This document shows, in pieces, positions 5,627 to 58,600 of a DNA stretch of 64,000 nucleotides (its first letter is position 1; the number at the start of each line of letters is the position of its first letter). The position numbers were made by a program, and so were the translations under genes. Source of the DNA: Yuukianura sp. NJ FZ-2021 (taxonomy: Eukaryota); the NCBI GenBank assembly GCA_046563655.1, contig CM102290.1:4836001-4900000 (forward strand). Direction: 5' to 3'. The notes under the pieces were generated by a model. The model saw nothing but the letters and a program-made list of their open reading frames with translations. It was not told the origin of the DNA and did no database searches.

Positions 5627-8581
5627 CTAACGAGTTTCGTGTAATCCATAGTCTTCCCATATTGTAGTGTCCAACTCGCTGTCAGCATGCTCAGCCTATA
5701 AGATGGAGGAAAACGTTTTTAAAATATGAATTTGAGACTAAATAGCATGGATTCAGGATAGTCACTAGGTTTAGGTAAATACGTTCGTAATCTAAAATAG
5801 AATGTTGACAATTAGTTACATCCTCGTCCTCTTCTTCGTCCAAGTCCATCTCTTCTCCAACAGTGACTTCAAATGGAGCATCCGTCCCACGTGAACTACA
5901 AGGGTCCAGACGATCTAATCCTTGGCGAGCGTCTTTATTTGACGGATCCAGTCTGAAACAAATTAAACACAACACCAAAATCAGGATTTAGAAACTACAC
6001 GAAATCAGTAGAAATAATTTACCTCAGTGCGATTGCATACTGATCAGCTGCACTTTCTTCTTGTCCGTTTTTACACAACATAGCGGCTAGTCTTACATGT
6101 AACTTGCTTGGAGAAACTCGAAGGTCAATGTAGTTTTTGAGCATTTGTATACCCTCGTTGAACTTTCCCTCCTGATGGGTTGAATTGAAGTTATTTAACG
6201 ATAGTAAGTGAAGAAATAACGCTTCGATTGCGCGGCGATATATAATAATAAAAATGAAAAGTTATCATTGGTTCGACTTACAGATTCGTAGATGTCAGCG
6301 TAGGTCATAATAGCTGGCAAAAACGTTGGATCAGCTTCCAGAGCCTTCTCCAGATACGTTTTTGCCTTTGTTACTGTCAAAGGATCTTTCTTCAACGCAA
6401 TAGCACAGAGCTGTAACACATTATAACTTTTAATTAGTTTACGATTTTATACAATAAGTACTACCTATAAGTTCAGAATTATACTACATAGGTAATATGT
6501 TTTCATTGATTGAACAAAATATGATAATAAAGTATGTCAGTTTCTTACGTTGAATACACGCGGAGTATGTCCGACTGCCTTCAATGCACTGATTGCTACC
6601 GTCATGGCTTCTCTTATCCGTGAGGTAGCTAGGTAGCAGTCAACGATACCACGATAAGCTTCATATCGTTCCGGATTCCGAGACATAACCTCCCGAAAAC
6701 ACATAACAGCTTCCTGATATTTCTTCATTTTGAGGTAAATATGGCCTTGACAAATTATTCCTTCCGGGTTAGTCATCCCCAGAAAAGTGGCACCCTATAA
6801 CACATTAAGTTAGAGCATTACCTTGGAGTAACTTATCAAATTGTTCGTTGGAAATCTTTGGATTCAATTGATTCTACACTACTACTCATAGCAGCCTTAC
6901 TGAAAAAAAGGATTAAGTTTTTCTATCGGATGATCATCGAAAAAGTGGACGTTTTGTAAAAATAACCCCAAATGAATCCCCAAATTGTTACAGTACAACA
7001 AAAATACAAAATAACACATAAACTTCCAGTGTCGATTGGGGCAATTTTTGCAAAACCGACCACTTTTCGCTGATCACCCTGTAGAAAAACTTGATCTTTT
7101 TTAAGTAAGGTTGCTACGAGTAGTAAACTTACTCGGACCGCGAAGACCTGAGCACGATTTAATCGGCCGAGAGACATTGTGTGATACGCAGATGCGATCC
7201 ACGGTTCACTTTTTGATTCTCGAAGGTTATAGTCATTCAGTCTTAGTTGTAATTTGTAGAGTTCTTGCTGCATTTCTTCTTGCCAAAGAGCGAACGCGTA
7301 GAAATCCATACCTTTCATATTGAGTGGCTCGAAGTGTAGGGCCTATGAATCAAACCAGTATGTCACAGTAATACGCCTGTTTTTGTCAGTTTAAACTCTG
7401 CCGAAAAAGTACTCACCCATTGAAACGCGTTAGTTGCTGCAACATAGTCCCCGTAGTTAATATTTGCCATGCCGAGACTGTGGAGTAGAGAAACACATCC
7501 TGTTAACCTCTTCTGTTGTCTGATTTCATTGAAAATCTTGATTCCGGCGAGATGGTCTTTGGCGGCGACAGCCGCTGTGCCACGGATCCAACTGTTATAC
7601 CTAAAATAAGATTCATTGTCAATAGAAAAGAATCATGGATAACTTTTATTAAAAACAGTCTAACAACCAACCGCACCGAAGCCTTACCAGTTCAAGTTTG
7701 TATTCGACTTTGCAGTTTTGTCACGCACTAGAGACTGTACGTCATCTTCGTTACATCCCAGCAAAATTAACTGTTCTACTGCATCAAGTGCCATTGGACA
7801 CACCTAATGGGAAGAATAAAGATTTGAAACAAAATCAATTCCAAATTTCAATAACAAGTTGGCACTTTTAAGTATACCTTTAGAACTTCTTTGTAAGATG
7901 TAATCGCAGCTCGTTCCATACCAGTCTTCTTATACAAGTGACCCATGGCCATGTTGATTTGAACTGTGCGTTGTTTTGCAGGAATCGTTTCTAACCACTT
8001 CAGAGCATCAGCTGTTTTCTTATTTTGTGACATGCATAGATATACCTTATATTTCAAATCTGTAAATCAAAGATCAAGGAGTTAAAAGGTAACATTTAAC
8101 AAATTATAAACAAACCTACCTGTGGAACTTCCGCAATTATCAATTAGTTTGCTCTTCATAGTAGGATGTAGCTTGAAAAGTGGTTTGTATAATTGTAGAC
8201 ATCGACGATAAAAGGCTTCCGCTCGATGGAAATCCAACAGTCTATAAGCAGATTCTCCACACATAAAATACACATGGCAGTGTTGGTGCTCAGTAAGAAG
8301 TTCCGGTTGCTGCTGAGCCAACCCCAGGGCCCAGCTACTCTGTTAATTAAAAATTAGTTGACATATTTATTCAACCTGGAAAAGATCTGTAAGTTACTGT
8401 CACCATTCTTAACATCATCAAAACGTCGCAGCGTGCTTACAAAAGTCAGAAGGTTTGAGTATAACTCATTGTCGAACAAAGCTTTTAATTCGTCGTAGTA
8501 GAAGTTGCTTCTTCGAATTTTTTGGTCCGATTGACCAGAAGAACCACCGGGGCCAGCAGCCGGTGAGTTTACAGTTGACAT
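5627..8581 (-). CDS. ANAPC7: Anaphase-promoting complex subunit 7 (TPR protein), 11 coding exons, 592 aa
   Basis: Exons (minus) 8581-8441, 8339-8120, 8059-7878, 7803-7688, 7600-7417, 7342-7133, 6794-6549, 6410-6282, 6171-6023, 5952-5820, 5695-5627. All introns GT-AG with consistent phases, total 1779 nt. Translation has APC7 motifs: IPAKQRTVQINMAMGHLYKKTGMERAAITSYKEVLKVCPMALDA, MKGMDFYA, EPW, YRGIVDCYLATSRIREA, KAKTYLEKAL, ALRLDPSN and an acidic tail. Confidence 0.95.
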
Positions 8582-8585
8582 TGTT

Positions 8586-8666
8586 CTATGTATAAAAGAA
8601 GCACAAACATGAAATTGCTAATTCACCATTCCTTTTAATTGAACTGAAGTTGTGCAACTCACATAC
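8586..8666 (-). other. ANAPC7: 5'-UTR intron of ANAPC7 (upstream non-coding exon begins at 8667)
   Basis: GTATGT donor at 8666; pyrimidine tract plus TAG acceptor ending at 8586, 4 nt before the ATG; 81 nt, typical intron size here. Confidence 0.65.
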
Positions 8667-8887
8667 CTTATTCTTGGTCAGTTCCCACAGATCGAGTAAC
8701 GACTCGTAACTTGAGCGCTCCAACACTGGGTACAATCTTCAGTTTAAAATTGATTAATACGTACATCAACAATTAGTGGAGCACTAACCCTAGGTAGTAT
8801 AACATGACACTGTTTTGGTTGTTTACTTTTTATTTTGGTTAATTAAATTCAGTTTTCAGTTTCAGGTTTATCCAAGTTGCACACACA

Positions 8888-8995
8888 GGGATCCCCTAAA
8901 AGGCGGAACGCGGAAAAGGCGGAAAACCGCGCACTATACGAGGAAAAGGCGGATTACCGCGTACTATACGAGAAAAAACCCGGAGACTCGCGCAC
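8888..8995 (+). repeat. Left TIR with ~29-30-bp internal repeats (core CGCGCACTATACGAGGAAA)
   Basis: Two full units plus a partial one; reverse complement of 12072-12198. Confidence 0.9.
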
Positions 8996-9505
8996 CAACC
9001 TAACCGCCACCAGCCACCACCGAGGCTTCAGAACAAAACTGCAACTCAGCCTTTGACCTCAACAGATGGTCACAGAGTCGTGTGTGATATGCCAAAATGA
9101 TCTCACTGACCTCAACAACTTTTGTAAGGGTCATTTTTGATGTTGTCAGGAGACGCCGGGTCAAATTTTCTGGACTTAGAGAAATTTTCATCTGCACCAC
9201 GTTTGATAGAATCCAACCAGACGATTTAGTTCTGCTCTCGGCTGCTTGCTTTTCCTTCTTCTGTTCTAAATGGCTACAAAGTCAGCTTCTGCAGCAATTC
9301 CCTTCCGAGCAATTTGCAGCTTGCAATATCCCAAAAACTTCGCGATGCGCGATAATCTTAGCCGTTGTTGATTAGACTAGGTTAATCAGTTTCTTCTGTT
9401 TTGAATTGACTTAGTTATTTTCATTCTCGTTTCGGCAGGATTGTTGGTCGAACATATTAATTGGGATAACAGTTGGTGTGCTCCGTGAAGAGACCTCGCT
9501 TCAAC

Positions 9506-11798
9506 ATGACTACTCCCATTTTAAAACTTCCGAAAAGAGGCACGTAAGGACGTTACTAAACCGAATTCATGCGGCAAATTGATTTTTTTTGAAGTGATTT
9601 CGAAGAATTGTAAGAGGGATAAAAATGCCGACTTTGTGTAAAAAGCTGGAACTTTCCCTATGAGTTATCACTTACTTTTTTTAATTAGGACGGACTGCGA
9701 CACAAGGGCAAGATGTTCAATTTGTCAGGGGTTCTCCGACATTCCGGAATCGTAAGTTTTAAGATTTTTTTAACACATGAAACTAGTTCACTCCACAATA
9801 AAGACAAAGTCGCGAAGCTTTTTAATGATTGCAATAATTTTTGGGATTTAGGGGAGAAGAAAAAAATGAGGAACGTAGACCAGGGATATATCCGAAGACT
9901 TTAAAATTTGGTCATAATGAAACAGGTGTCATTCCAGTTCATAATCAAGATCATCAAGATGTAGGTGCCAACGAACACCTTGCGCTTGGTGAGGCACGAA
10001 TTTATTCATGTGTAATAAAACCGTTTACTCTGTGTAAGATAATGTCTAATGACATTTGGCAAAAAGTAGAATTACTAAATAATTTTATTTATTTATTTTA
10101 CAATTAATTTATATTTAATAATTTGTACATTTTAGTAGATGGGACACCTACGCTTCCCCTCCTGAGCGGTATAACACTTCGAATGAATCGACGACACCAC
10201 TTAACACAGAAGGCAACGGCGGTGAAAATTTTGTACATGTCCAGAATGGGACCTCTCAGCAACTCAGCATCTCAGCAATTCATCGAAAATTGGCACATAC
10301 AAACATCCTCATGTGTGGACTCGGAGGACTCGGAGTAGAACTCGCAAAAAACGTTTGTCTGGGTAAGCATCTGGCACTTCAAAAAGTTTTTGCAAAACGT
10401 CGTTCCATGGATTCGGATTTAGATTTGAATTTGGTTGTTTCAGGCGGTATGAAATCCGTGACTCTGCAAGATACAGCTAAAATATCCTGTATTGATCTGA
10501 GCAGCCAATTCTACTTGAACGAGGAGCACATTGGGCAGAATCGTGCTCTGGCTAGTCGAGATCAGTTGGCCCAGTTGAATCCGTATCTCAACGTGAAAGT
10601 CATCACAGAACCACTTACGACGGAACTCATCAAGAACTTTCATATCGTCGTGGTGACGGATCGCGTTGGGACTGAAGCGACACTGTGTGAGTTGTCTTGC
10701 TTTTGTCACGAGAAGAACATCATTTCATTTCATTTCATTTATTCTCCTGTTTCTGGCAGGCTTTTCAGAAGAAGTAATAGTGATAGTTTTTTTGAAGTGT
10801 AATTAATATTAGTTAATTAAAGATCGCTTTCATCTTGCTGAAACTCGCGGAGTGTTTTCTCGCTTGTTCAGTGACTTTGGAGAGGGGTTTGTGGTCAATG
10901 ACTCCAACGGTTAACCACCAATTACAGCATTGGTTGCCAGTGTGACGCAAGACACGAATGGGCTCGTCACTTAGCTCGCCATGGACTGGAAGACGGGGAC
11001 TTTGTGACGTTCACTGAAGTGGTCGGCATGGAGGAGTTGAACGGATGTGAACCAATGGAGGTCACTTTCACTATCGGAGACACTTCAGGTATCCACGCAA
11101 CTGGAGTTGAATTATACACACTGATACTATATATATGTAATTATGTACCATTGGTGTCTTTGTGAATGCAGGGTTCAAGGCTTATGAAAGTGCTGGGACG
11201 GTGGTGCAAGTGAAGAAACCGGTTGTCGTGGATTTCCAGTCTTTTGAAGCGTGTCTTCGTTAACCTGAAGTTGTTTACAACGATTTTGCCAACCTGGATC
11301 AGTCGAATCAGCTTCACTGTGGATTCCGTGCCCTGGATTGGTTGGTGGCTGAGACTGGGCGACTCCCTAAGCCTTGGAACGAGGAGGATTCAGCAGTGGT
11401 TGTGGAGATGGCGAAGGACATCAGTGCCACTCTCAAAAATCCCCTGGATGGGGTGGATGAGAACTTGCTGAAACTCTTCTCCTTTGTGAGTGCAGAGAAT
11501 ATTTGCCCAATGAATGCTTTCGTCGGATGTGTGGCTGCTCAGGAAGTGATGAAAGCCTGTACTGCAAACTTCTACCCCATCAAGCAATTTAAATTTTTGG
11601 AGGCTGTCGCCCGTCTCCCACCACCACCTCCACCAGCCCATCAGGTAAATTTAAATCAAGATCATAACCAATCATTTTAAAAATTCACACTTTTCAAAAT
11701 AGTGTTCAAGTGCTTTTAATTTTTTTGTTTGATTTTGTAGGTTGAACCAACTACTGGTCAAATCAATCTGCCGGATTGCAATGCAGATGAGGATTTGG
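9506..11798 (+). pseudogene. UBA1: Decayed chimeric gene: unrelated N-terminal exons, then the N-terminal half of ubiquitin-activating enzyme E1 (IAD, FCCH, four-helix bundle), then a short unrelated C-terminal exon
   Basis: Exons 9439-9543 (ATG 9506), 9689-9751, 9852-9988, 10136-10362, 10444-11088, 11172-11644, 11741-11798 with GT-AG introns. UBA1 motifs: [126 protein letters not shown]. Lesions: TAA at 10912 and 11261; frameshifts near 10835, 10972 and within 10136-10290; an apparent ~6-codon deletion near 11063; a 104-bp insertion. Confidence 0.9.
10722..10825 (-). mobile_element. 104-bp insertion, probably the 5'-truncated 3' tail of a non-LTR retroelement (LINE/SINE)
   Basis: Interrupts the UBA1-like frame between KNI and AFI. 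ATC is duplicated at 10719-10721 and 10823-10825. The minus strand ends AATAAATG(AAATG)3, a poly(A)-signal-plus-microsatellite tail. Confidence 0.65.
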
Positions 11799-12071
11799 GT
11801 AAGCCGTCACTTTTTCTTCTCTAAATATGTAAACAAGGTAGGGCAGTGCTCAAAGGTTGAGCACAGGTCTTCTGGAGGAAGTTGACAATAATTGATGGCA
11901 CCTAAACCAACCTGCTTCAAAACTGGGGAAGAACTGACCTTGTCCCTTGTGTGTTTGCATGATGTCAGTTGCGAAATTTTTAACTTTAATTTAGGTAGTT
12001 TAATTAACTAAATTCTAAAAGATCCTAAATTCTAGCATAGTTTAAAATGTTTTTATTTGAATAACGGCCAA

Positions 12072-12198
12072 TAATCCGCGTTTTCCTCGTATAGAGCGCG
12101 TGTTTCCGCGTTTCCTCGTATAGTGCGCGGGTTTCCCCGTTTCCTCGTAAAGTGCGCGGTTTTCCGCCTTTTCCGCGTTCCGCCTTTTAGGGGATCCC
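12072..12198 (-). repeat. Right TIR with three ~29-bp internal repeats
   Basis: Three TTTCCTCGTA(T/A)AG(T/A)GCGCG units followed by the terminal ...CCGCCTTTTAGGGGATCCC. Confidence 0.9.
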
Positions 12199-13868
12199 GC
12201 ACACACAGACTCACGAATATGTAACTCCGTCACTTATGGGCAAAACCTGAAAAACCTTCGAGAAACGAAAAAATTTAGTAATTCCACGGCAGGCTTTTCA
12301 CTAAACATTTTCACCTACTTTTTACATTTCGATGATCATATTTTAACTGTTTTTAATATCAAGCGTTTGCGTTAGTGCTTGATTTCCTTGCTTTTTCATA
12401 AAACTCCATTCCTCGCTATAACGTGCCAAAACACTCAAACAAGAGTTAAAAGCAAGATACTGTAACTATAATAATGAGCCAGAATTAATGGTAAGGTTCG
12501 AGGCAGTTGTTAATACAAATCGACTGCTGTAGGCTAATCGGGGCCTATTTCATTCTTATCAAATATATTACTTTAACAAATTAATAAAAAAATTTGCCCG
12601 TTATTGAGAAGGGAAAAGGTGAGAAACGGTAGTGCCAGAGTGCAACCTGATTATATTAAGTTCATTTTTTTCCGAAGAATTTTTGCCTTCACTTTTCCCG
12701 CTACGGATAAGATGCCAAACTCAAGGTTTTTCGTTTAGAAAGTGTTACGTAAAGTTGAAATCTTATTACGATTAATCAAGCGATTTAAATTAAAACTTAA
12801 AGACTACTTCGTGTCCCACAGAAATAAGAGTGAAAATTAGACCCAAAAATATGATCCTTAGCTGACTATAAACAATACCCCAAGAACATACAAAAGTTAC
12901 GACCACGACCACGCTCGTTGCGTGGCTAGGTGCAATTGAGAGTAACAAACAATAAACTAGAAATGTCGATTTAGTGTTAATTTGAATTATGCAATTAAAA
13001 CGTTTTGTAATTTTTACAAAAGTAATCCAAAATTATCCATACTTTAAAATTTAATCCTAATTAAAATTACCAATTAAATATGCTTTTAGAACCCTTGTCG
13101 CCTCTTATTTAGTATTTTTTTTCTTTCATGTGAAATTTCCACGTCAACTACCATCAGACAACCAAGTACATTGCGTTGATGTCATGGTTGACTAGTTTTA
13201 TTTTTGGTGTGAGAGAAGAGCCGAAGTTAATTATAAATAAGTTTAATTATGTTTTTACATCATGAATTGGATGAGTTTTTGTGAATTACTAATTGAATTG
13301 AGGTAGTCTGAGTTTGTAGGTGGCGGTATGGTAGTTGTGTGTAGTCAGAGGCTATATAGCGGAGGCTTTAAGGGTGTTCGTTGTTCTAATTGAGGGAGAG
13401 TGAGGCATCTCTTCTCCAAGATCACTATATGACAACACAAGAAAGAAGAATAGTCAATAGACACTCTCTGGGTCAACCACTTCTGCACCACAGTTTTACT
13501 TAGAAATTAATTAACACTTACCCACACCAATTATTCTAGTTTCACAAACACCAATTACACCAGGGGAGGCCGCGGACACCCTCACTTTCAAGCTGATTTC
13601 TTCAACAATACGTCTCAAGCCACCACTCACACTGACCTCCGACCTTTCTCAGTACTCAACCCATACTTAATGCTCATCCACGACAAGGTCAGGGTCTTTC
13701 GAGACCAATGGGTACGTCTCTACACAACAACTGCAACTGGATAACGGACCTGGTCAATTCGTCCCCAACCAAAGCTACTTTACCCGGTGATTCCTTTTAC
13801 TTTCATCTTCCCGTTGTTGGCCCTGTTCAAACTTCTTCCACATTCATCATCATCATGAAGATGTGGAT

Positions 13869-16800
13869 ATGGAGGTGTACAGCAGCAACGTAAGAATAAT
13901 TTTTAAAAAGACTATTTTTTTTGGGTAAATAAGAATATGAAAAGTCACTGGATGTGAAGTCAAATCTCGCCAGTGAGTGAAATGAAATGTTACTCGACCT
14001 CCTTTTCTTAAAGAACTTTCTCCAATTCCCTACCACACAAGTTCTCTAACTTGTCTCAACTGACTTTATTATTTTTGTTTCAGAATCCATTTAATATGCG
14101 ACAACACAATTTGAATACCCTTCACCTACAAGGAACAACACCCGTTACTAAGCTGAAGACAGGGTTAACCTTTCCAACGGTTTCAATGTCTTTCTCAACT
14201 ACCACTACGGCAAAGTCTCTCGATCTCCTTCGTCAAAACATTCAACGCTCAGTTAATCAAGATATCAGAAATGTTATTTCTAAATATATGGAGGTGAGTG
14301 AAAGCTGGACATTGAATATGGCTATTTACGCAAATTACTAAATTACCTATGGTTTTGAACTTCACAACTAACATAATCAGTTTTGCTTAATTCCACAGCT
14401 ATTCTTCAAACCCGGTATAGAGAATATTAGAAGTAATTCTGGTCCTGACTCTGTCACTGATGATCATATTCACACCATGTGCCGTCAAATCCTCGAAGAT
14501 GCCAAGAAGATGTACCCTGGCCGCTCTTCTACTCCGTCCCCTTCGTCTATGTCCTGCAGTACTGGAAGTGCAATAGATCACGAGTCATCGGACTATTCAC
14601 AAAGTCACAGCCAAATTAGCAATGATCAAGTCAAGGTCCCTCATTCGGTACGACTGTCTCTGCATTTCCCTATCCAGTATAATTCAACACTGCAATAATG
14701 TGGAATTGGTTGTATTCTTTAGAGCCCAACGTTTGGAATTAAACGTGAATCGGATGATACCGACTCTGAAGCGAGCTCAATGTCGAATGCAAGCAAGAAG
14801 ATGAAGAAAGCAGCCAATAATAAAGGCAGCAAGGCTAACGATAGCTCTGTAGGAAACAATAATGCAATTAACAATGGGTCAGCGACAAAACCAAAGAAAC
14901 CGTCCGGTCCATCGCGGAAGCATGTGGCCAACTGGGAACTGGAAAAGCTAATTCCAGACACTCTGTTTATCATGGGAGCCAAGTAAGTATTTTCAACTTC
15001 AGTTATGCAAAACTATCTGATTGAGGAATGAATGGTCAGCTAATAACATTTTCTGATTTCGAAAGTAAAGGCGATTGTGAAGAATCAATCATAACTTGTA
15101 TGTATTCCTAGGGCCAACAAAGCACTTGGATTTGCTCAAACACGCGGTCGTCTTTACGTTAAGCATCCAGGCCTGTTTAAGTACGCTAGCGATTCTGATG
15201 ACAAAGAATGGCTGTCAAAGAACAAGCTAATGCCTGCCACTGGAGGACGAGCCTACATAATGTTACTGGAAGATATTGAAAAATTGGCCCAAGACAACAA
15301 GTGAGTGAACTTTATTCACCTGCCGATTCACGAACAAAGTTTTCTGTGTTTTTTATAGATACCTTGCACTGGGAACATATAACTTTCTAACTACTAACAA
15401 AGTAGAACCGGTTTTATTAGGCTTTTGAATAATTTATTGTTATTGTTTTCAGAACAATTTTTTTTTCCTTCCTGGACAATTGAGTTAATTCTATTTCTTT
15501 TACTTACAGATTGAACGTGACAATTAATTACGATGACATAAAGGGATTTCGTGTTCCCGACTTTATTTTAGAAAAGATGAAGTCGTACATTTCAAAATGG
15601 AAGAAGTTATATGCTGAGGAAGCCCAAAAGCCCGCTATTCCTGCCAACAGGAACCGAACGCAGAACTGTATGACTGTGAACCTTGGTAGTAGCACTGTCC
15701 CTGCTAATTCAGCACAGCCAAACGCAAATGGAACTACGACCAATTTACCGTCGATCAATCCTCCACCACCACCATTACCTCTTCATTCGCCCATGCAGCC
15801 TTCTCAAAAACCTCATCCTCACGCCCATAACAATTCGCAGAATCTAAACAGTTACCACATCAGTGGGAATTCTATCGCGAACAACGTTATGTACGAACAG
15901 GAGTTAATGCCTCTTCCTCAACAAACTCATGACTTGGGTGAGATGCGAGAATTTCTTCAAATGGAGAAACCCCCACCGATGTACCCGGGTCACTCGGGTC
16001 AGGTTCACAACATGCAATCTAACCAGTCTTCTCATGGTGGCTATGTCCACTCTACGCATTTAGACCCCATTGAACAGGCAATAACAAAAGGAGATTGGAG
16101 TGGTGTTTCCGATAGGAGTCTCTTACAATACGCATTGCAGGTAACTTCATAGTGCAATTTAATTACACCAATCTGGAGCGACAACTATAAAGACTTGCGC
16201 CCGGTTGCAAGTCCTTCCCGCGTCGCAAATTCAAATTTTGCGACGTTTGGTACTCAAGAAACCGGGAGCAAGTAGGATCGCAAGAGGATAGCAACTCTTG
16301 CCATCCTCCTTCTCTTTCTCCATTGAAACCTTTCTCCTAGCAGGAGAATCCCTACCTATAAAGAGCTCCTCCTCTCAGTAGCATAGCAACTTCCGTGATA
16401 TCTTTGCGGCTAGTCGAGACTAGCCGCAAACTTGCTACTTGAATGGTTATTAAAGATTAGAATCTAAATATAAGCACTACTAAGTGAATTAACACATGTA
16501 ACAACAGCCTAACATTTTCTAAGCATATTTTAAGCATACCCTAATCATAATACCGTCACTTTATGAAGTTGTATTACTATTGCTAATGGAATTATGTGAT
16601 AGGCATATGAGTTGCTTTGAAAGATGGAAGTTAATCCTGTTCTGGGGTTCTTTACAAAAGAACCCTTTTAAATTACCCCGTTTTGGTTAAAGTTTTACAT
16701 TATAAGGCCTCAATAACCAATTCTACTTCATAATTGCCTTAAAGATCGAACAATACGTGATAACAACAATAAACGATGACAACTAATAGGTACATGTGTG

Positions 16801-47072: not shown

Positions 47073-47226
47073 CAAAGATTGTTTTTTTTTTTCAGCGCAC
47101 AAAAGTGAATTATTTGAAGTGAAAATTTTAGCATGTTTAAAAAAAATTTCAAAGATTATTTTTTTTCAGCGCACAAAAGTGAATAATTTGAAGTGAAAAC
47201 TTTAGCATGTTTAAAAAAAAATTCAA
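47073..47226. repeat. Two-copy tandem duplication, unit ~75 bp
   Basis: CAAAGATT..TTTCAGCGCACAAAAGTGAAT(T/A)ATTTGAAGTGAAAA(T/C)TTTAGCATGTTTAAAAAAAA occurs at 47073 and 47150. Confidence 0.9.
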
Positions 47227-55600: not shown

Positions 55601-58600
55601 GGTATGAAAATGATAGTGAGTCAATGGGAGGAATATTTATTAGGATGGTCTTACGCAAGAGAAAGCCAACTTTAGGGAAAGTCACAGGAGAAGAATTATT
55701 CCAAAGGCTCTTTTAGACCATTGAAGCACAAAGGACTTCTCTTCCTTTTGTTTTTCCTTTCTCCTAACTATTCCACAAAAACTACAGAAACAACTTGGTT
55801 AGTTGAGAAGCAACTGAATACTATGTGAACCTAATACAATAAATACAGGGGATTCCGGATTGAATAGTAAAATATAACTTTCATTTTCAAAATTGTCAAG
55901 GGGAGGAGGTTCTCGGACCACAAATGTCCACATAAAGTCTGCATAATTTTTCAACTCAATTTCCTCCCACTGCTAAATCCATTTCTTGTGACCTTTGACC
56001 TCACGCTAACTTCATTCACACCTTTTAACAAAAATCATAACAGGAGAAGGCTAATACTTACTTAGCAACAAACTCAACAACTTGACAGATCTAAGAAGAC
56101 ATCTTACAAGCCTGAGCATAATTACTCAACATTCGAGTACATACCTTATATATTCTAACTTATTTGTTCAACTTCAATTAAATATCTTAAAATATTATTG
56201 CATGTCGTAATTATTATTTTTAATTATATAATAGCACCCATCAGTAGAAGTGGCAGAATGAGCAATATGGAAAGAACTAAAGCTCAATTCCAAAACTCCC
56301 ATTTTCCCAAATAAACTGGCCCTTCTACCTAAAAACTCGTAGCCCAAATTCCCCTTTTCTGCAATTCTAACAGGAAAGAGTCCTAGAAATAGTCCGATTA
56401 TTGATTTCTAGTAAAAAACTGCTTTCTCTCCCACTATTCCCTTCATTTCCAAGGAGGCTGATTTTTAAGACCTACGTTAGACTACACACAGAGCACTTCA
56501 ATAAGTACTCACTTCTTATTAAGTGAAGAACCATAGTTATAACTACAAACAGCCTCCCTTCAACTACAAACAACTTCCGCTTCAGCCTACTTTCTCTAAC
56601 TCTTATAATCAAGTAGAGAAACACTTTAACATGTTACAGGAAGACACCAACTGCCAATACATCTATATTAGACGAATCTACCAATCAAATAACGACTTTA
56701 TACTTCCCTTGGGAGATTGGAGATTTTTGCCTTAGGTTACGTTTTCAACTTTTCCTGTTTTTAAAACCAATTCTAAACAAACCTAAGTTAAACCACTCCT
56801 CTTCATAAAAACGGCCCAAATATATCCGTAACTTTGGAATCGCACTTTAAAGTATGAAATTATATAATAAGTTTAATTGTTTTTAGATATTTTACGTTAA
56901 TCACACTTCTCCATTTCAATTTCTTTCTGTTTTAAGTTTAAACCTTTTTTGCCTCACTGGATTTGAACAAATTGAGAAAGCACTTTCGTCAATGTCTCTC
57001 TCTCTCTTTCCATGGATTGAATTCCAAAAAAAAAAACTTTTAAAACGGCGCCGCTTTTCCCCCGTCCCAAAGATATGCGAATCCACGTCGACAATCGATT
57101 TAACTTCCGCCAGTTCCAGGAGCCATATAAACTTAAAATTTAGCAATTTAAATGCAACTTGATATTTATCATTGTTAATGATATTTTCCTTTGCGAAAAA
57201 TCGTTAATTCAAACAGTAAAAAACATTTTTAGGCACGGTTTGCCTTTTTAGAGTAAATTGAGTTCGTCTACATTTGCGTTATGGAAATTTAAAGCGTCTT
57301 AGGTTTTGCAAGTTCGATTGCTTTGCTACAAGACGTCAAAACTTTTTTGGCAGCGGTTGGGCGTAGATTTGATTTTGAAGTTAGCAATTTTGTAAACTCA
57401 AATAATTGATTCAAAGTACACAGTATTAGGAGAATTGACGTATTTGATCTCATCATCGCCTTTCCCTTGTCCCCCATTAGCATTTTGCTTTGATTAATGA
57501 CACGAATTGGATAATATGAAGGTAGACGGGTTAATACGAGGTCAATCCTCCGTTGTTCGACCAACGTCAAAAACTTTCTCCCTACTCAGCATGTATTAAG
57601 TCATTTCCATTTTGGCAGCATCATATCGGATTTGTACTGCCAAGGTTAGGTTAGGTTAGTTATGTTTTACGTCACATTAACTTCACATTGTCCAGGGAAA
57701 AAGTCAATCAAAGGCCTAACCTTGACCCAAAATAGGATCGCTGTCAGAGTAACCGCCGAACCTTTCGCAAGTCTTCGAGAAACACATAACCTACCGCAAA
57801 TTAAAAAGTTCATATTGACGGTGGAGTGGAAGTTTGTGATCCTAGGGATTGACACATTTTGGTGAGTTAAATTGGGTTAGGCAATCCATTACTCTTGCTG
57901 AGTCCAGGCGTCTCATTAACTTTGTATGAGCCGGGAATGGTTGAAATGAAGAAATAAATTAAGAGGTGGGAATTGATAGTGACAAGTGGAGAGAAGGGAG
58001 ATGCTTGGGAAAAAGGCAGTCCTTAGAACATGGGTTGTCAATATGGGGGCTGAATTATTCATGGCCTCCGCTCTTCGGACATCGTCTTCCACCCCACTTG
58101 GAATCAGGACAACTCCATTATGGACAGGAGGGAATGAGAAACAAGACGCAAACTTATCATCCGCATGAATACGCTCCTCTAAATATTAGAATACGCCTGT
58201 CAACCTTCCAAACGGGGTCTCATCCCAACCTCATCTTTGGCACGAACAAAACGTAGCACTTCTTTTCAAAAGAAGCGGAAAGAACCAAAAATCCAGACGA
58301 CTCAGCAGTTGAGCCAGAGAAGGAGAAAGATTAGAAAGTGGATGAATAAGGGAAAGTGTTCCAAATTTGAGTCCCTGTGTGTACAAATTCTGCGGTTCCA
58401 TCCATCCAACATTTAGATTTCCCCGCGAGAGAGAAAGAGCTGTTAATCTTAATCCCCAGCCTCAGAACACTCTAAAGTGTTGAGGAGTGACTCAAAGGAC
58501 GTAGGAAAGCTAGGTTATTGATTCGAGACACTTTTCCAAGGAAACTACGACATGACCTCAACTTTGGGGTGAAAGCGGTCCATAGTCATCTATTCAACTT

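Follow-up and report, generated by a model that had tools for sequence, protein, structure and literature searches.

A non-autonomous TIR transposon carrying a broken fragment of the host UBA1 gene

A transposon that carries part of a ubiquitin-activating enzyme gene raises the question of whether its cargo is, or once was, a gene for half of an E1, or is host DNA that was copied into a mobile element and is being lost. The sequence-only reading of this locus had described a spliced chimera that joins the N-terminal part of UBA1 to unrelated sequence and stops where heterodimeric E1s are split. It had offered three options for the predicted half-E1: a decoy, a subunit of a split E1 or a neutral exon-shuffling product. 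The analysis covered the whole surrounding stretch of 64 kb (the window), and all positions refer to it (Table 1). The locus is probably a Pack-TIR, a non-autonomous TIR transposon with captured host DNA that was mobilised after capture and is now decaying. The description as transposon cargo and as a DNA-level chimera of a UBA1 N-terminal part with unrelated sequence stands, and the neutral product fits best among the three options.

Table 1. Features of the element, its cargo and its target site, in window coordinates
Feature	Position	Strand	Remark
Target-site duplication, left copy, 9 bp (GCACACACA)	8879-8887		Identical to 12199-12207
Left TIR	8888-8993	+	Begins GGG; core 8888-8949, 62 nt
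Left arm, akin to many dispersed repeats	8994-9308		Many repeat break points
Putative 5'UTR intron, GT..AG, 58 nt	9381-9438	+	Motif only
Putative exon A	9506-9543	+	ATG in CAAC context; GT donor
Putative exon B	9689-9751	+	AG acceptor; GT donor
Putative exon C	9852-9988	+	AG acceptor; GT donor; leaves phase 1
Non-UBA1 stretch, acceptor 10136 to UBA1 start	10136-10283	+	Open in two frames
Captured UBA1 fragment	10284-11620	+	IAD part 1, FCCH, 4HB, IAD part 2
~97 extra nt with ATTTC repeats inside a UBA1 exon	10722-10818	+	Relative to host-like contig
In-frame TAA	10912-10914	+	GAA in host-like contigs
10-nt frameshifting deletion	10972-10973	+	Relative to host-like contigs of all four runs
18-nt in-frame deletion in FCCH	11061-11062	+	Relative to host-like contigs of X1, X2 and X4
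Second in-frame TAA	11261-11263	+
Non-UBA1 tail	11621-11798	+
59-nt fragment from a very common dispersed repeat	11831-11889		~260x single-copy depth
Right TIR	12096-12198	-	29-nt subterminal repeats at 12082-12171
Target-site duplication, right copy, 9 bp	12199-12207		Perfect match to left copy

The interval 8888-12198 is a non-autonomous TIR DNA transposon of 3,311 nt, flanked by a TPR gene on one side and by DNTTIP1 on the other. Its 62-nt termini are 97% complementary, and the pairing extends over 106 nt at ~88% (87.7%) against 12096-12198; this pair is the only long inverted repeat within the 64 kb. The left TIR contains subterminal direct repeats of ~30 nt at 8908-8937 and 8938-8967. A Pfam search of the 208 window ORFs of at least 70 aa found no transposase and no other TE family, and a scan of metagenome contigs for the TIRs gave no matches. 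TIRs with a target-site duplication, an interior free of transposase and an interior drawn from a host gene located elsewhere together describe a Pack-TIR.

The superfamily is most likely Mutator-like, which would make the element a Pack-MULE. This call, held with moderate confidence, draws on duplication length and TIR form because neither an autonomous partner nor a transposase was seen. A 9-bp duplication, long TIRs, G/C-rich termini and subterminal repeats are all MULE features. According to the available text of the respective papers, MULE families of Aedes have 8-9-bp duplications, with TIRs longer than 100 bp in 12 of 14 families and subterminal tandem repeats in most of those (PMC5225508); arthropod MULEs have G/C-rich TIR ends, and two species of springtail are known to carry complete MULEs (PMC13359780). 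Assignment to Merlin, or to another superfamily with 8-9-bp duplications, is possible but unlikely and would leave the Pack-TIR reading unchanged. Merlin elements are described, in the accessible part of PMC8101967, as having TIRs that span 24-462 bp and end in GG, with duplications of 8 or 9 bp; the element agrees in TIR length, GG end and duplication, features that do not discriminate Merlin from MULE. Against Merlin, long TIRs with subterminal tandem repeats, a 9-bp duplication, a GGG terminus and host gene fragments form the classic MULE combination (PMC5225508, PMC6446971, as excerpted), and the complete MULEs of the two springtails point the same way.

In form the element resembles non-autonomous Muta1 derivatives of Aedes aegypti, which share an arthropod host, 8-9-bp duplications, TIRs that reach or exceed about 100 bp and have subterminal tandem repeats, and the possibility of precise loss of the element together with one duplication copy (PMC5225508, in part). 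The comparison concerns form, not TIR sequence, and the available text of that paper does not describe host gene fragments in these derivatives.

Contigs and read depth from four public sequencing runs (X1-X4) were compared with the window. Empty-site contigs join position 8878 straight to 12199, so that the element and one copy of the duplication are gone. One such contig comes from X2 (638 nt, depth 147.5) and another from X4 (5,215 nt, depth 32.1, equal to flank depth). In X4 the depth over 9309-9911 is zero, and in X1 the element's contig has a depth of 112 against 234-244 in the flanks. The insertion is missing from X4 and from part of X2, and it is polymorphic rather than fixed because the exact empty site is present in contigs of public runs. 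The empty allele differs from the window flanks at 26 of 2,412 positions (1.1%). Excision of MULEs can be precise, at ~90% in yeast with flanking duplications (PMC5225508, as excerpted), and the empty site could therefore reflect excision rather than a pre-insertion allele. Under either interpretation, the element moved.

Within the element, similarity to UBA1 begins at 10284 (RKLAHTNIL), matching the start at ~10280 given by the sequence-only reading, and ends at 11620 (...ARLP). The fragment corresponds to residues 55-414 of the 1,037-aa Varroa UBA1 and to about residues 92-434 of human UBA1, has Pfam matches to ThiF (1.4e-14), E1_FCCH (1.1e-13) and E1_4HB (8.2e-17), and keeps introns at 10363-10443 and 11090-11171. 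A search of a protein collection with the UBA1 part returned three matches, the best being a mite UBA1 at 45% identity, and a query with the ThiF exon returned none; the host's own UBA1 is apparently absent from that collection. A host-like UBA1 contig of 14.9 kb was present in X4 at single-copy depth (33.6 against 32.1). It aligns to 10295-10709 and 10840-11586, introns included, differs from the window beyond 10295 and 11586, and runs on at both ends. Over 1,162 nt, cargo and host-like gene are separated by 126 substitutions (10.8%; ~89% identical). The cargo is a DNA-level capture from a host UBA1 gene located elsewhere.

The remainder of UBA1 is not nearby. The C-terminal half (residues 415-1037, with the active adenylation domain, the catalytic-cysteine domain and the UFD) has no match anywhere in the 64 kb. 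Upstream of 10284, likeness to the UBA1 N-terminus is not significant, with shuffled sequences scoring at least as well in 182 of 500 trials and in 127 of 500, in agreement with the earlier view that the N-terminal segments are unrelated to UBA1. The peptide TSQQLSIS was considered as a conserved N-terminal motif of UBA1 and rejected, its score being no better than that of shuffles.

In 4p22, the crystallised 446-residue N-terminal part of human UBA1, the C-side end of the fragment maps to chain position 441. It is at most a few residues away from the IAD/AAD boundary, and the earlier observation that the cargo ends at the split of heterodimeric E1s is correct; this position is best read as a coincidence of the break point. 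Among heterodimeric E1 chains, the ThiF part is closest to SAE1 (E ~4e-8), with SAE2 and NAE1 at 0.02-0.03, a likeness that, judged from the sequence comparison, reflects shared ancestry of the domain only. The cargo covers the region homologous to SAE1 (Aos1), NAE1 (APPBP1) and 4p22. Unlike SAE1 and NAE1, it comes from UBA1 itself, as its FCCH and 4HB show, has stops and frameshifts, and is without the first ~54 residues. The proposed equivalence to an SAE1/NAE1-like unit fails because the break on the N side has cost the domain these ~54 residues, and what is left is a truncated and broken copy rather than a complete inactive adenylation fold.

That a TIR element contains ~1.2 kb at ~89% identity to host UBA1, an essential gene, could suggest a role at the RNA level, in which read-through or TIR-driven transcripts would enter small-RNA pathways and either modulate UBA1 or bring about silencing of the element. 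Cross-talk through siRNAs has been proposed for gene capture in plants (maize preprint 10.1101/777037, as excerpted). Such a role is improbable here: the UBA1 part has no second, inverted copy within the element, the insertion is polymorphic, and at a divergence of 11% few long perfect matches are left.

The pattern of divergence bears on whether the cargo was ever under selection. Among the listed coding differences between cargo and host (25, less than a quarter of all), 17 lie at third codon positions, and 12 of the 21 codons that they touch are synonymous. Relative to a rough model of a constrained host gene and a neutral cargo, this excess has p = 0.017 for positions and p = 0.085 for codons. 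The cargo may therefore have been constrained in the past, or its donor may not have been the present-day host allele. An element that before its decay expressed a chimeric half-E1, with a new N-terminus joined to IAD-FCCH-4HB and an end right at the domain boundary, and that was selected for a time, for instance because the product interfered with the ubiquitin E1 as decoy or dominant negative, would be compatible with these counts, and we give it only a slim chance. If it were true, the element would have been a transposon-borne modulator of host ubiquitination, with the synonymous and third-position excess as its trace, and run X3, from organism B, in which host-like UBA1 sequence has a relative depth of ~30-fold, might hold amplified, less decayed copies. 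The excess in X3 may reflect either target enrichment or a genuine amplification of an element that bears UBA1.

Capture could in principle have taken place without transposition. The available text of Tan et al. 2021 reports 370 Pack-TIRs in 100 animal genomes, mostly hAT and Tc/mariner, with no Pack-MULE among them and no Pack-TIRs in insects or birds; most single-copy cases are attributed to gap filling next to the parent gene, with a bias to parents within 15 kb (PMC8277862). The present locus resembles these elements in being a TIR element with a host gene fragment and an apparently single-copy cargo. The UBA1 part might accordingly have entered a resident element through gap repair independent of transposition, which accounts for most single-copy animal Pack-TIRs (PMC8277862, in part), or be a segmental duplicate between TE ends, and the single-copy appearance of the cargo's N-terminal part would suit this. 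Both are very unlikely, since what the alternative allele lacks is the element in full plus one duplication copy, not the cargo by itself, the window contains no UBA1 parent in the 8.9 kb left of the element or the 52 kb right of it, and the cargo-host divergence of 10.8% is ten times the 1.1% between filled and empty alleles. The latter ratio also suggests an age order, with capture before insertion. Unlike most single-copy animal Pack-TIRs, as described in the accessible text of PMC8277862, this element has no parent nearby and was inserted or excised, with its load, as a unit.

For the preferred reading, a Pack-TIR mobilised after capture, template switching may have copied genomic DNA into an ancestral element while it was being replicated or a double-strand break was being repaired. 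One piece would be the 1.3-kb stretch of host UBA1, cut within exons at both ends and retaining two introns. At least one further piece, roughly 9150/9300-10283, would have brought in ORF-like segments bounded by splice motifs. The loaded element would later have been moved as a unit by a transposase acting in trans and binding the TIRs and subterminal repeats, and its landing between the TPR gene and DNTTIP1 would have made the 9-bp duplication. The UBA1 copy would since have become a decaying pseudogene.

The non-UBA1 parts retain an exon-like layout, much as the sequence-only reading had outlined it. The putative 5'UTR intron has GT at 9381-82 and AG at 9437-38, the ATG at 9506 stands in its CAAC context, and the three N-terminal segments are phase-compatible, have GT..AG borders and remain free of stops when joined (238 nt). 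Beyond the end of UBA1 similarity, the predicted non-UBA1 segment with GT..AG borders is also present: in the tail, a proline run extends to 11644, the GT..AG interval spans 11645-11740, and a segment of 58 nt (11741-11798) has a GT donor behind it. In total, GT..AG is kept at 7 of 7 proposed intron borders in the non-UBA1 parts. None of putative exons A, B and C has a Pfam family. When 1.84 billion representatives were searched by HMMER with exon C (45 aa), no real relative emerged; the only two matches, tandem-repeat proteins over 13-24 residues, were rejected as repeat artefacts.

The proposed junction from 9988 to 10136 does not lead into UBA1. Phase 1 after 9988 combined with the acceptor at 10136 enters the frame of ORF 10108-10338, with a stop at 10336-38, whereas the UBA1 frame is that of ORF 10122-10802. 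Acceptors that would bring exon C into the UBA1 frame are limited to weaker ones at 10210, 10213 or 10276. The suggestion to build a consensus ORF from genomic copies also fell away: for 9309-10112, no other contig at least 80% alike was found in X1 or X2, where coverage holes prove nothing either way, and without a second N-terminal copy no consensus ancestor can be rebuilt.

The UBA1 reading frame is not uninterrupted. At the ~97-nt insertion the window has 130 nt (10710-10839) against 27 nt in the host-like contig, and the insertion shifts the frame to a stop at 10800-02. An ordinary intron was rejected for this interval, which does not start with GT and faces 27 nt in the host-like gene. 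A GTAATA at 10774 with an AG at 10821-22 could remove 49 nt in phase, but this putative splice would leave 17 foreign codons and the stops unaffected. The 18-nt deletion also appears as a gap in the alignment to Varroa UBA1. The second TAA is confirmed by an X3 contig without differences to the window over 11063-11431, while the first TAA and both deletions are read from the window assembly alone because none of the listed contigs of the element's own type spans ~10643-11061. Host-like UBA1, at single-copy depth, is intact at all three comparable lesions. At least three lesions in the cargo (the two TAA stops and the 10-nt frameshift) are beyond rescue by splicing.

That the cargo is a present or recent gene for a catalytically dead half-E1, an IAD-FCCH-4HB protein with a new N-terminus that would serve as a decoy for ubiquitin or E2 partners or provide a split E1 with its regulatory subunit, is hardly credible: the end at the IAD/AAD boundary, SAE1 as the closest heterodimeric chain, the canonical splice motifs with open N-terminal segments and the synonymous and third-position excess would speak for it, but they are set against the unspliceable stops and frameshift, the further FCCH deletion and insertion, the best acceptor (10136) out of phase with the UBA1 frame, the loss of the first ~54 domain residues including a conserved motif ahead of residue 55, an insertion absent from X4 and part of X2, no second N-terminal copy at or above 80%, and no C-half gene in the window. 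The working half-E1, as decoy or subunit, is thus not borne out, with two stops, a frameshift and an unfixed insertion. Most likely, to go by its reading frames, the element makes no half-E1 protein. The locus then has no bearing on E1 biology, and the 'half-E1' would be a pseudogene fragment.

In plants, new gene structures arise by a textbook route, the capture of gene fragments by Mutator-like elements. Pack-MULEs were reportedly described in rice and other plants by Jiang and colleagues in 2004 and Juretic and colleagues in 2005. Like them, the present element is non-autonomous, with long TIRs, a 9-bp duplication and no transposase. It also shares a mosaic interior of DNA-level genomic fragments with introns, break points inside exons and a copy that is mostly pseudogenised. 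Unlike them, it resides in an animal, probably a springtail, its family looks small rather than comprising thousands of copies, and its link to a Mutator transposase is putative. To our knowledge, Pack-MULE-like elements are barely documented in animals. With MULE-like ends, 1.3 kb of UBA1 and movement as a unit long after capture, the locus would therefore serve as a useful example, from an animal, of transposition-competent gene capture.

Two parts of the element are related to dispersed repeats. The left arm (8994-9308) has ~14-44x single-copy depth (4,700-7,000 against ~240 in X1), shows loose contig ends at 9050-9219, and has no recognisable protein and no Pfam family. The 59-nt piece near the right end reaches a depth of 61,243 against ~240 in X1, and loose contig ends occur at 11830/31 and 11889 in each of the runs. 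Scanning 8500-12600 with Rfam and for tRNAs gave no matches, and these scans gave no indication of a SINE or tRNA origin for the repeat parts. Some contigs, which are fragments rather than full copies, are common to the element over 8888-8977 and then diverge. Two contig-level joints may represent relatives of the element without cargo: one in X4 connects 9054 to 11831, with just 25 letters on its short side, and one in X2 connects 8952 to 12024 with 39 other letters between.

The interval 9381-11798, which the sequence-only reading had described as a spliced chimera whose intact ancestor encoded a catalytically dead half-E1, falls within a larger unit. This unit, 8888-12198, is a 3,311-nt non-autonomous terminal-inverted-repeat (TIR) transposon with a 9-bp target-site duplication (see table). 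Its TIRs begin GGG and form the sole long inverted repeat in the whole 64 kb, and each element end has between two and four direct repeats, 29-30 nt long, in subterminal position. The rest of the 64-kb window contains no further sequence resembling any part of the element. Profile comparison detected no transposase or other mobile-element family in the element's ORFs, nor is there one among all 208 stop-to-stop ORFs of at least 70 aa in the window. The 59-nt piece in the right arm is part of a very abundant dispersed repeat, with no Rfam or tRNA matches. Within the repeat-related left arm, upstream of the ATG previously proposed as the start codon, lies a 33-codon ATG-initiated ORF (9270-9371, plus strand), which would be an upstream ORF if the region were transcribed.

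Features of the element, its UBA1 cargo and the neighboring genes
Feature	Position	Strand	Details
Exon-like ORFs with TPR repeats	6540-8066	-	profile comparison
Target-site duplication, 9 bp	8879-8887 and 12199-12207		identical GCACACACA, directly outside the TIRs
TIRs, core	8888-8949 and 12137-12198		62 nt, 97% complementary
TIRs, extended with mismatches	8888-8993 vs 12096-12198		106 nt, 87.7%
Left-arm repeat-related stretch	8994-9308		likeness to many dispersed repeats
Lesion 1: ~97 extra nt with ATTTC repeats	10722-10818	+	window 130 nt vs host-like contig 27 nt
Lesion 2: TAA	10912-14	+	GAA in host-like contigs
Lesion 3: 10-nt deletion, frameshift	after 10972	+	vs host-like contigs of all four runs
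Lesion 4: 18-nt deletion	after 11061	+	vs X1, X2, X4 contigs
Lesion 5: TAA	11261-63	+	window sequence
Dispersed-repeat piece, 59 nt	11831-11889		~260x single-copy depth, all four runs, sharp repeat borders
ORFs with DNTTIP1 dimerisation domain	14012-14695	+	profile comparison

The element is an instance of the known Pack-MULE/Pack-TIR phenomenon, in which a TIR transposon carries a host gene fragment. Tan et al. 2021 deal with animal Pack-TIRs (PMC8277862), and the term Pack-MULE has 0 occurrences in the main text of a 2026 arthropod MULE survey (PMC13359780). That survey describes G/C-rich arthropod MULE termini and complete MULEs in two springtail species. Aedes MULE families make 8-9-bp duplications and have TIRs longer than 100 bp in 12 of 14 cases (PMC5225508), and 9-bp duplications are also described for the Rehavkus group and others (PMC6446971). 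The element resembles animal MULEs in its 9-bp duplication, its ~100-nt TIRs beginning GGG and its subterminal tandem repeats, and on these sequence features MULE is the somewhat favored superfamily. Merlin elements likewise combine 8-9-bp duplications with GG ends (PMC8101967), a likeness that the element shares, making assignment to Merlin a possible but rather unlikely alternative.

Contigs from four public sequencing runs (X1-X4, from two studies and all presumed to be DNA; X3 carries a second organism label) were compared with 7500-13500. In an X2 contig of 638 nt (depth 147.5), 8878 is followed immediately by 12199, and a 5,215-nt X4 contig has the same junction, at a depth of 32.1 that equals the X4 flank depth. 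In both empty-site contigs the element is missing together with exactly one duplication copy. Depth in X4 is zero over 9309-9911. The filled form is present in X2 too, at depth 60-75, and in X1 a contig of the element itself (9151-10460, with 0 differences from the window) has depth 112 vs 234-244 for the flanks. The insertion is polymorphic. One sample record covers X1, X2 and X4, so this is either a mixed or a heterozygous sample. Between the empty allele and the window flanks, 26 of 2,412 letters (1.1%) differ. For the mosquito MULE Muta1, flanked by its duplication, about 90% of excision events are precise (PMC5225508), so the empty form may be either a pre-insertion allele or the product of precise excision. 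In either case, the whole element moved as one piece. The best explanation, which we hold with considerable confidence, is a non-autonomous TIR element, still or recently mobile, carrying a decaying gene-fragment capture.

Contig-level joints hint that relatives without this cargo exist. One X2 joint connects 8952 to 12024 with 39 other letters between, giving a miniature form of ~280 nt, and an X4 joint connects 9054 to 11831 with just 25 letters on its short side. Several further contigs are common over 8888-8977 and then diverge. The 39 internal letters of the miniature relative are rich in CCTAA units; the complementary sequence, TTAGG, is the telomere motif of arthropods.

The extent of the UBA1 similarity is as originally read. 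In a tBLASTN comparison, a 1,037-residue mite UBA1 matched the window over residues 55-414 only, at 10284-11620; residues 415-1037 have no match anywhere in the 64 kb. Pfam domains were found on three of the seven submitted ORFs: ThiF (1.4e-14), E1_FCCH (1.1e-13) and E1_4HB (8.2e-17). The fragment lacks the first ~54 residues and with them the conserved motif before residue 55, and UBA1 likeness upstream of 10284 is no better than that of shuffled sequence. Against solved structures, the last UBA1 ORF aligns to human UBA1 313-434 and extends to chain position 441 of 4p22, an N-terminal fragment of 446 residues. The C-side end thus falls where the inactive adenylation half gives way to the active one, as proposed. 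The E1 domain names, and the correspondence of SAE1 and NAE1 to the N-terminal half of UBA1, derive from E1 structure papers. The human UBA1 stretch aligned with the ThiF part is 92-183; among heterodimeric E1 chains this part matches SAE1 best (E ~4e-8), followed by SAE2 (~0.02) and NAE1 (0.03), a ranking that agrees with this correspondence. The N-side cut does not lie at a domain boundary. The fragment's C-side stop at such a boundary is probably a coincidence, and the description of the cargo as a chimera holds, with UBA1 and non-UBA1 parts inside a transposon.

A 14.9-kb X4 contig, which carries either the host's UBA1 or a very closely related paralogue of it, aligns to 10295-10709 and 10840-11586, taking in introns 10363-10443 and 11090-11171. 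Its depth (33.6 vs 32.1 for the flanks) is that of single-copy sequence, and it runs on at both sides, where it is unlike the window. X1 and X2 also contain host-like UBA1 contigs at about single-copy depth. The cargo is a copy made at the DNA level from this gene, cut inside exons; a retrocopy origin is rejected. The cargo differs from the X4 contig by 126 substitutions in 1,162 nt (10.8%), ten times the divergence between filled and empty alleles, suggesting that capture long preceded the movement behind the polymorphism. Gap filling beside the parent gene is the route by which most single-copy animal Pack-TIRs arise (PMC8277862), but the absence of a UBA1 parent from the window, which extends 8.9 kb left and 52 kb right of the element, argues against it here.

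In X3, depth is 2-8 both in the flanks and in contigs of the element itself, and repeat parts scale as in X1. Host-like UBA1 contigs, one intron included, reach 164-188 over about 10430-11535, or ~30x baseline, unlike the same sequence in X1, X2 and X4, where it is single-copy. This excess may come from target enrichment, or else a UBA1-bearing element may really have been amplified to ~30 copies in the second organism label.

The proposed N-terminal exons A-C (9506-9543, 9689-9751 and 9852-9988) do have canonical splice borders and are open when joined, and introns in the window are short and GT..AG. The proposed splice from 9988 to 10136 misses the UBA1 frame. Phase is 1 after 9988, and the acceptor with the best context, 10136, enters a frame that stops at 10336-38 rather than the UBA1 frame, for which the only acceptors are 10210, 10213 and 10276, all weaker. 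The UBA1 part also has five lesions, the first of which alters the frame and is followed by a stop. Judged from the sequence, splicing would be unable to remove at least three of them, and with the out-of-frame 10136 junction this contradicts a spliced, in-frame half-E1. Lesion 5 is confirmed in an X3 contig (11063-11431, 0 differences from the window), and the N-terminal junction lies within the equally identical X1 contig; lesions 2-4 are read from the window assembly alone, with no window-type contig listed there.

Putative exons A-C are distinct from native UBA1 5' exons, as had been claimed: the host-like contig is unlike the window before ~10295 though it continues for kilobases, and a native origin is rejected. 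No Pfam family matches the exon-bearing stretch (roughly 9150/9300 to 10283) or 11621-11830. Among 1.84 billion representatives searched, none is a credible relative of exon C, and no other X1 or X2 contig is at least 80% alike over the N-terminal cargo part.

Selection counts use 25 listed coding differences, a part of all those between cargo and host-like UBA1. Third codon positions account for 17 of the 25, and 12 of 21 affected codons are synonymous. A complete lack of constraint is excluded (p = 0.002), trivially so because the host gene is constrained. The excess lies weakly above a rough expectation of a constrained host and neutral cargo (p = 0.085 for codons, 0.017 for positions), which would allow for temporary constraint, for a donor distinct from the present host allele, or for bias in the rows shown.

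The element lies between the TPR and DNTTIP1 genes, near the upstream side of the TPR gene; judged from their ORFs, the two are apparently divergent. One DNTTIP1 exon has only two matches, both in springtails: Orchesella dallaii (59% identity) and Folsomia candida. They make a springtail the probable host of this eukaryotic sequence. Elsewhere, 47082-47226 contains a tandem 71-nt unit in two copies, 94% alike and spaced 74 nt. At 57292-57585 (minus strand), a weak resemblance to Nrap domain 1 that falls below threshold (E 3e-4, 21.4 bits vs a cut-off of 31) may point to an exon from a gene for a nucleolar RNA-associated protein.
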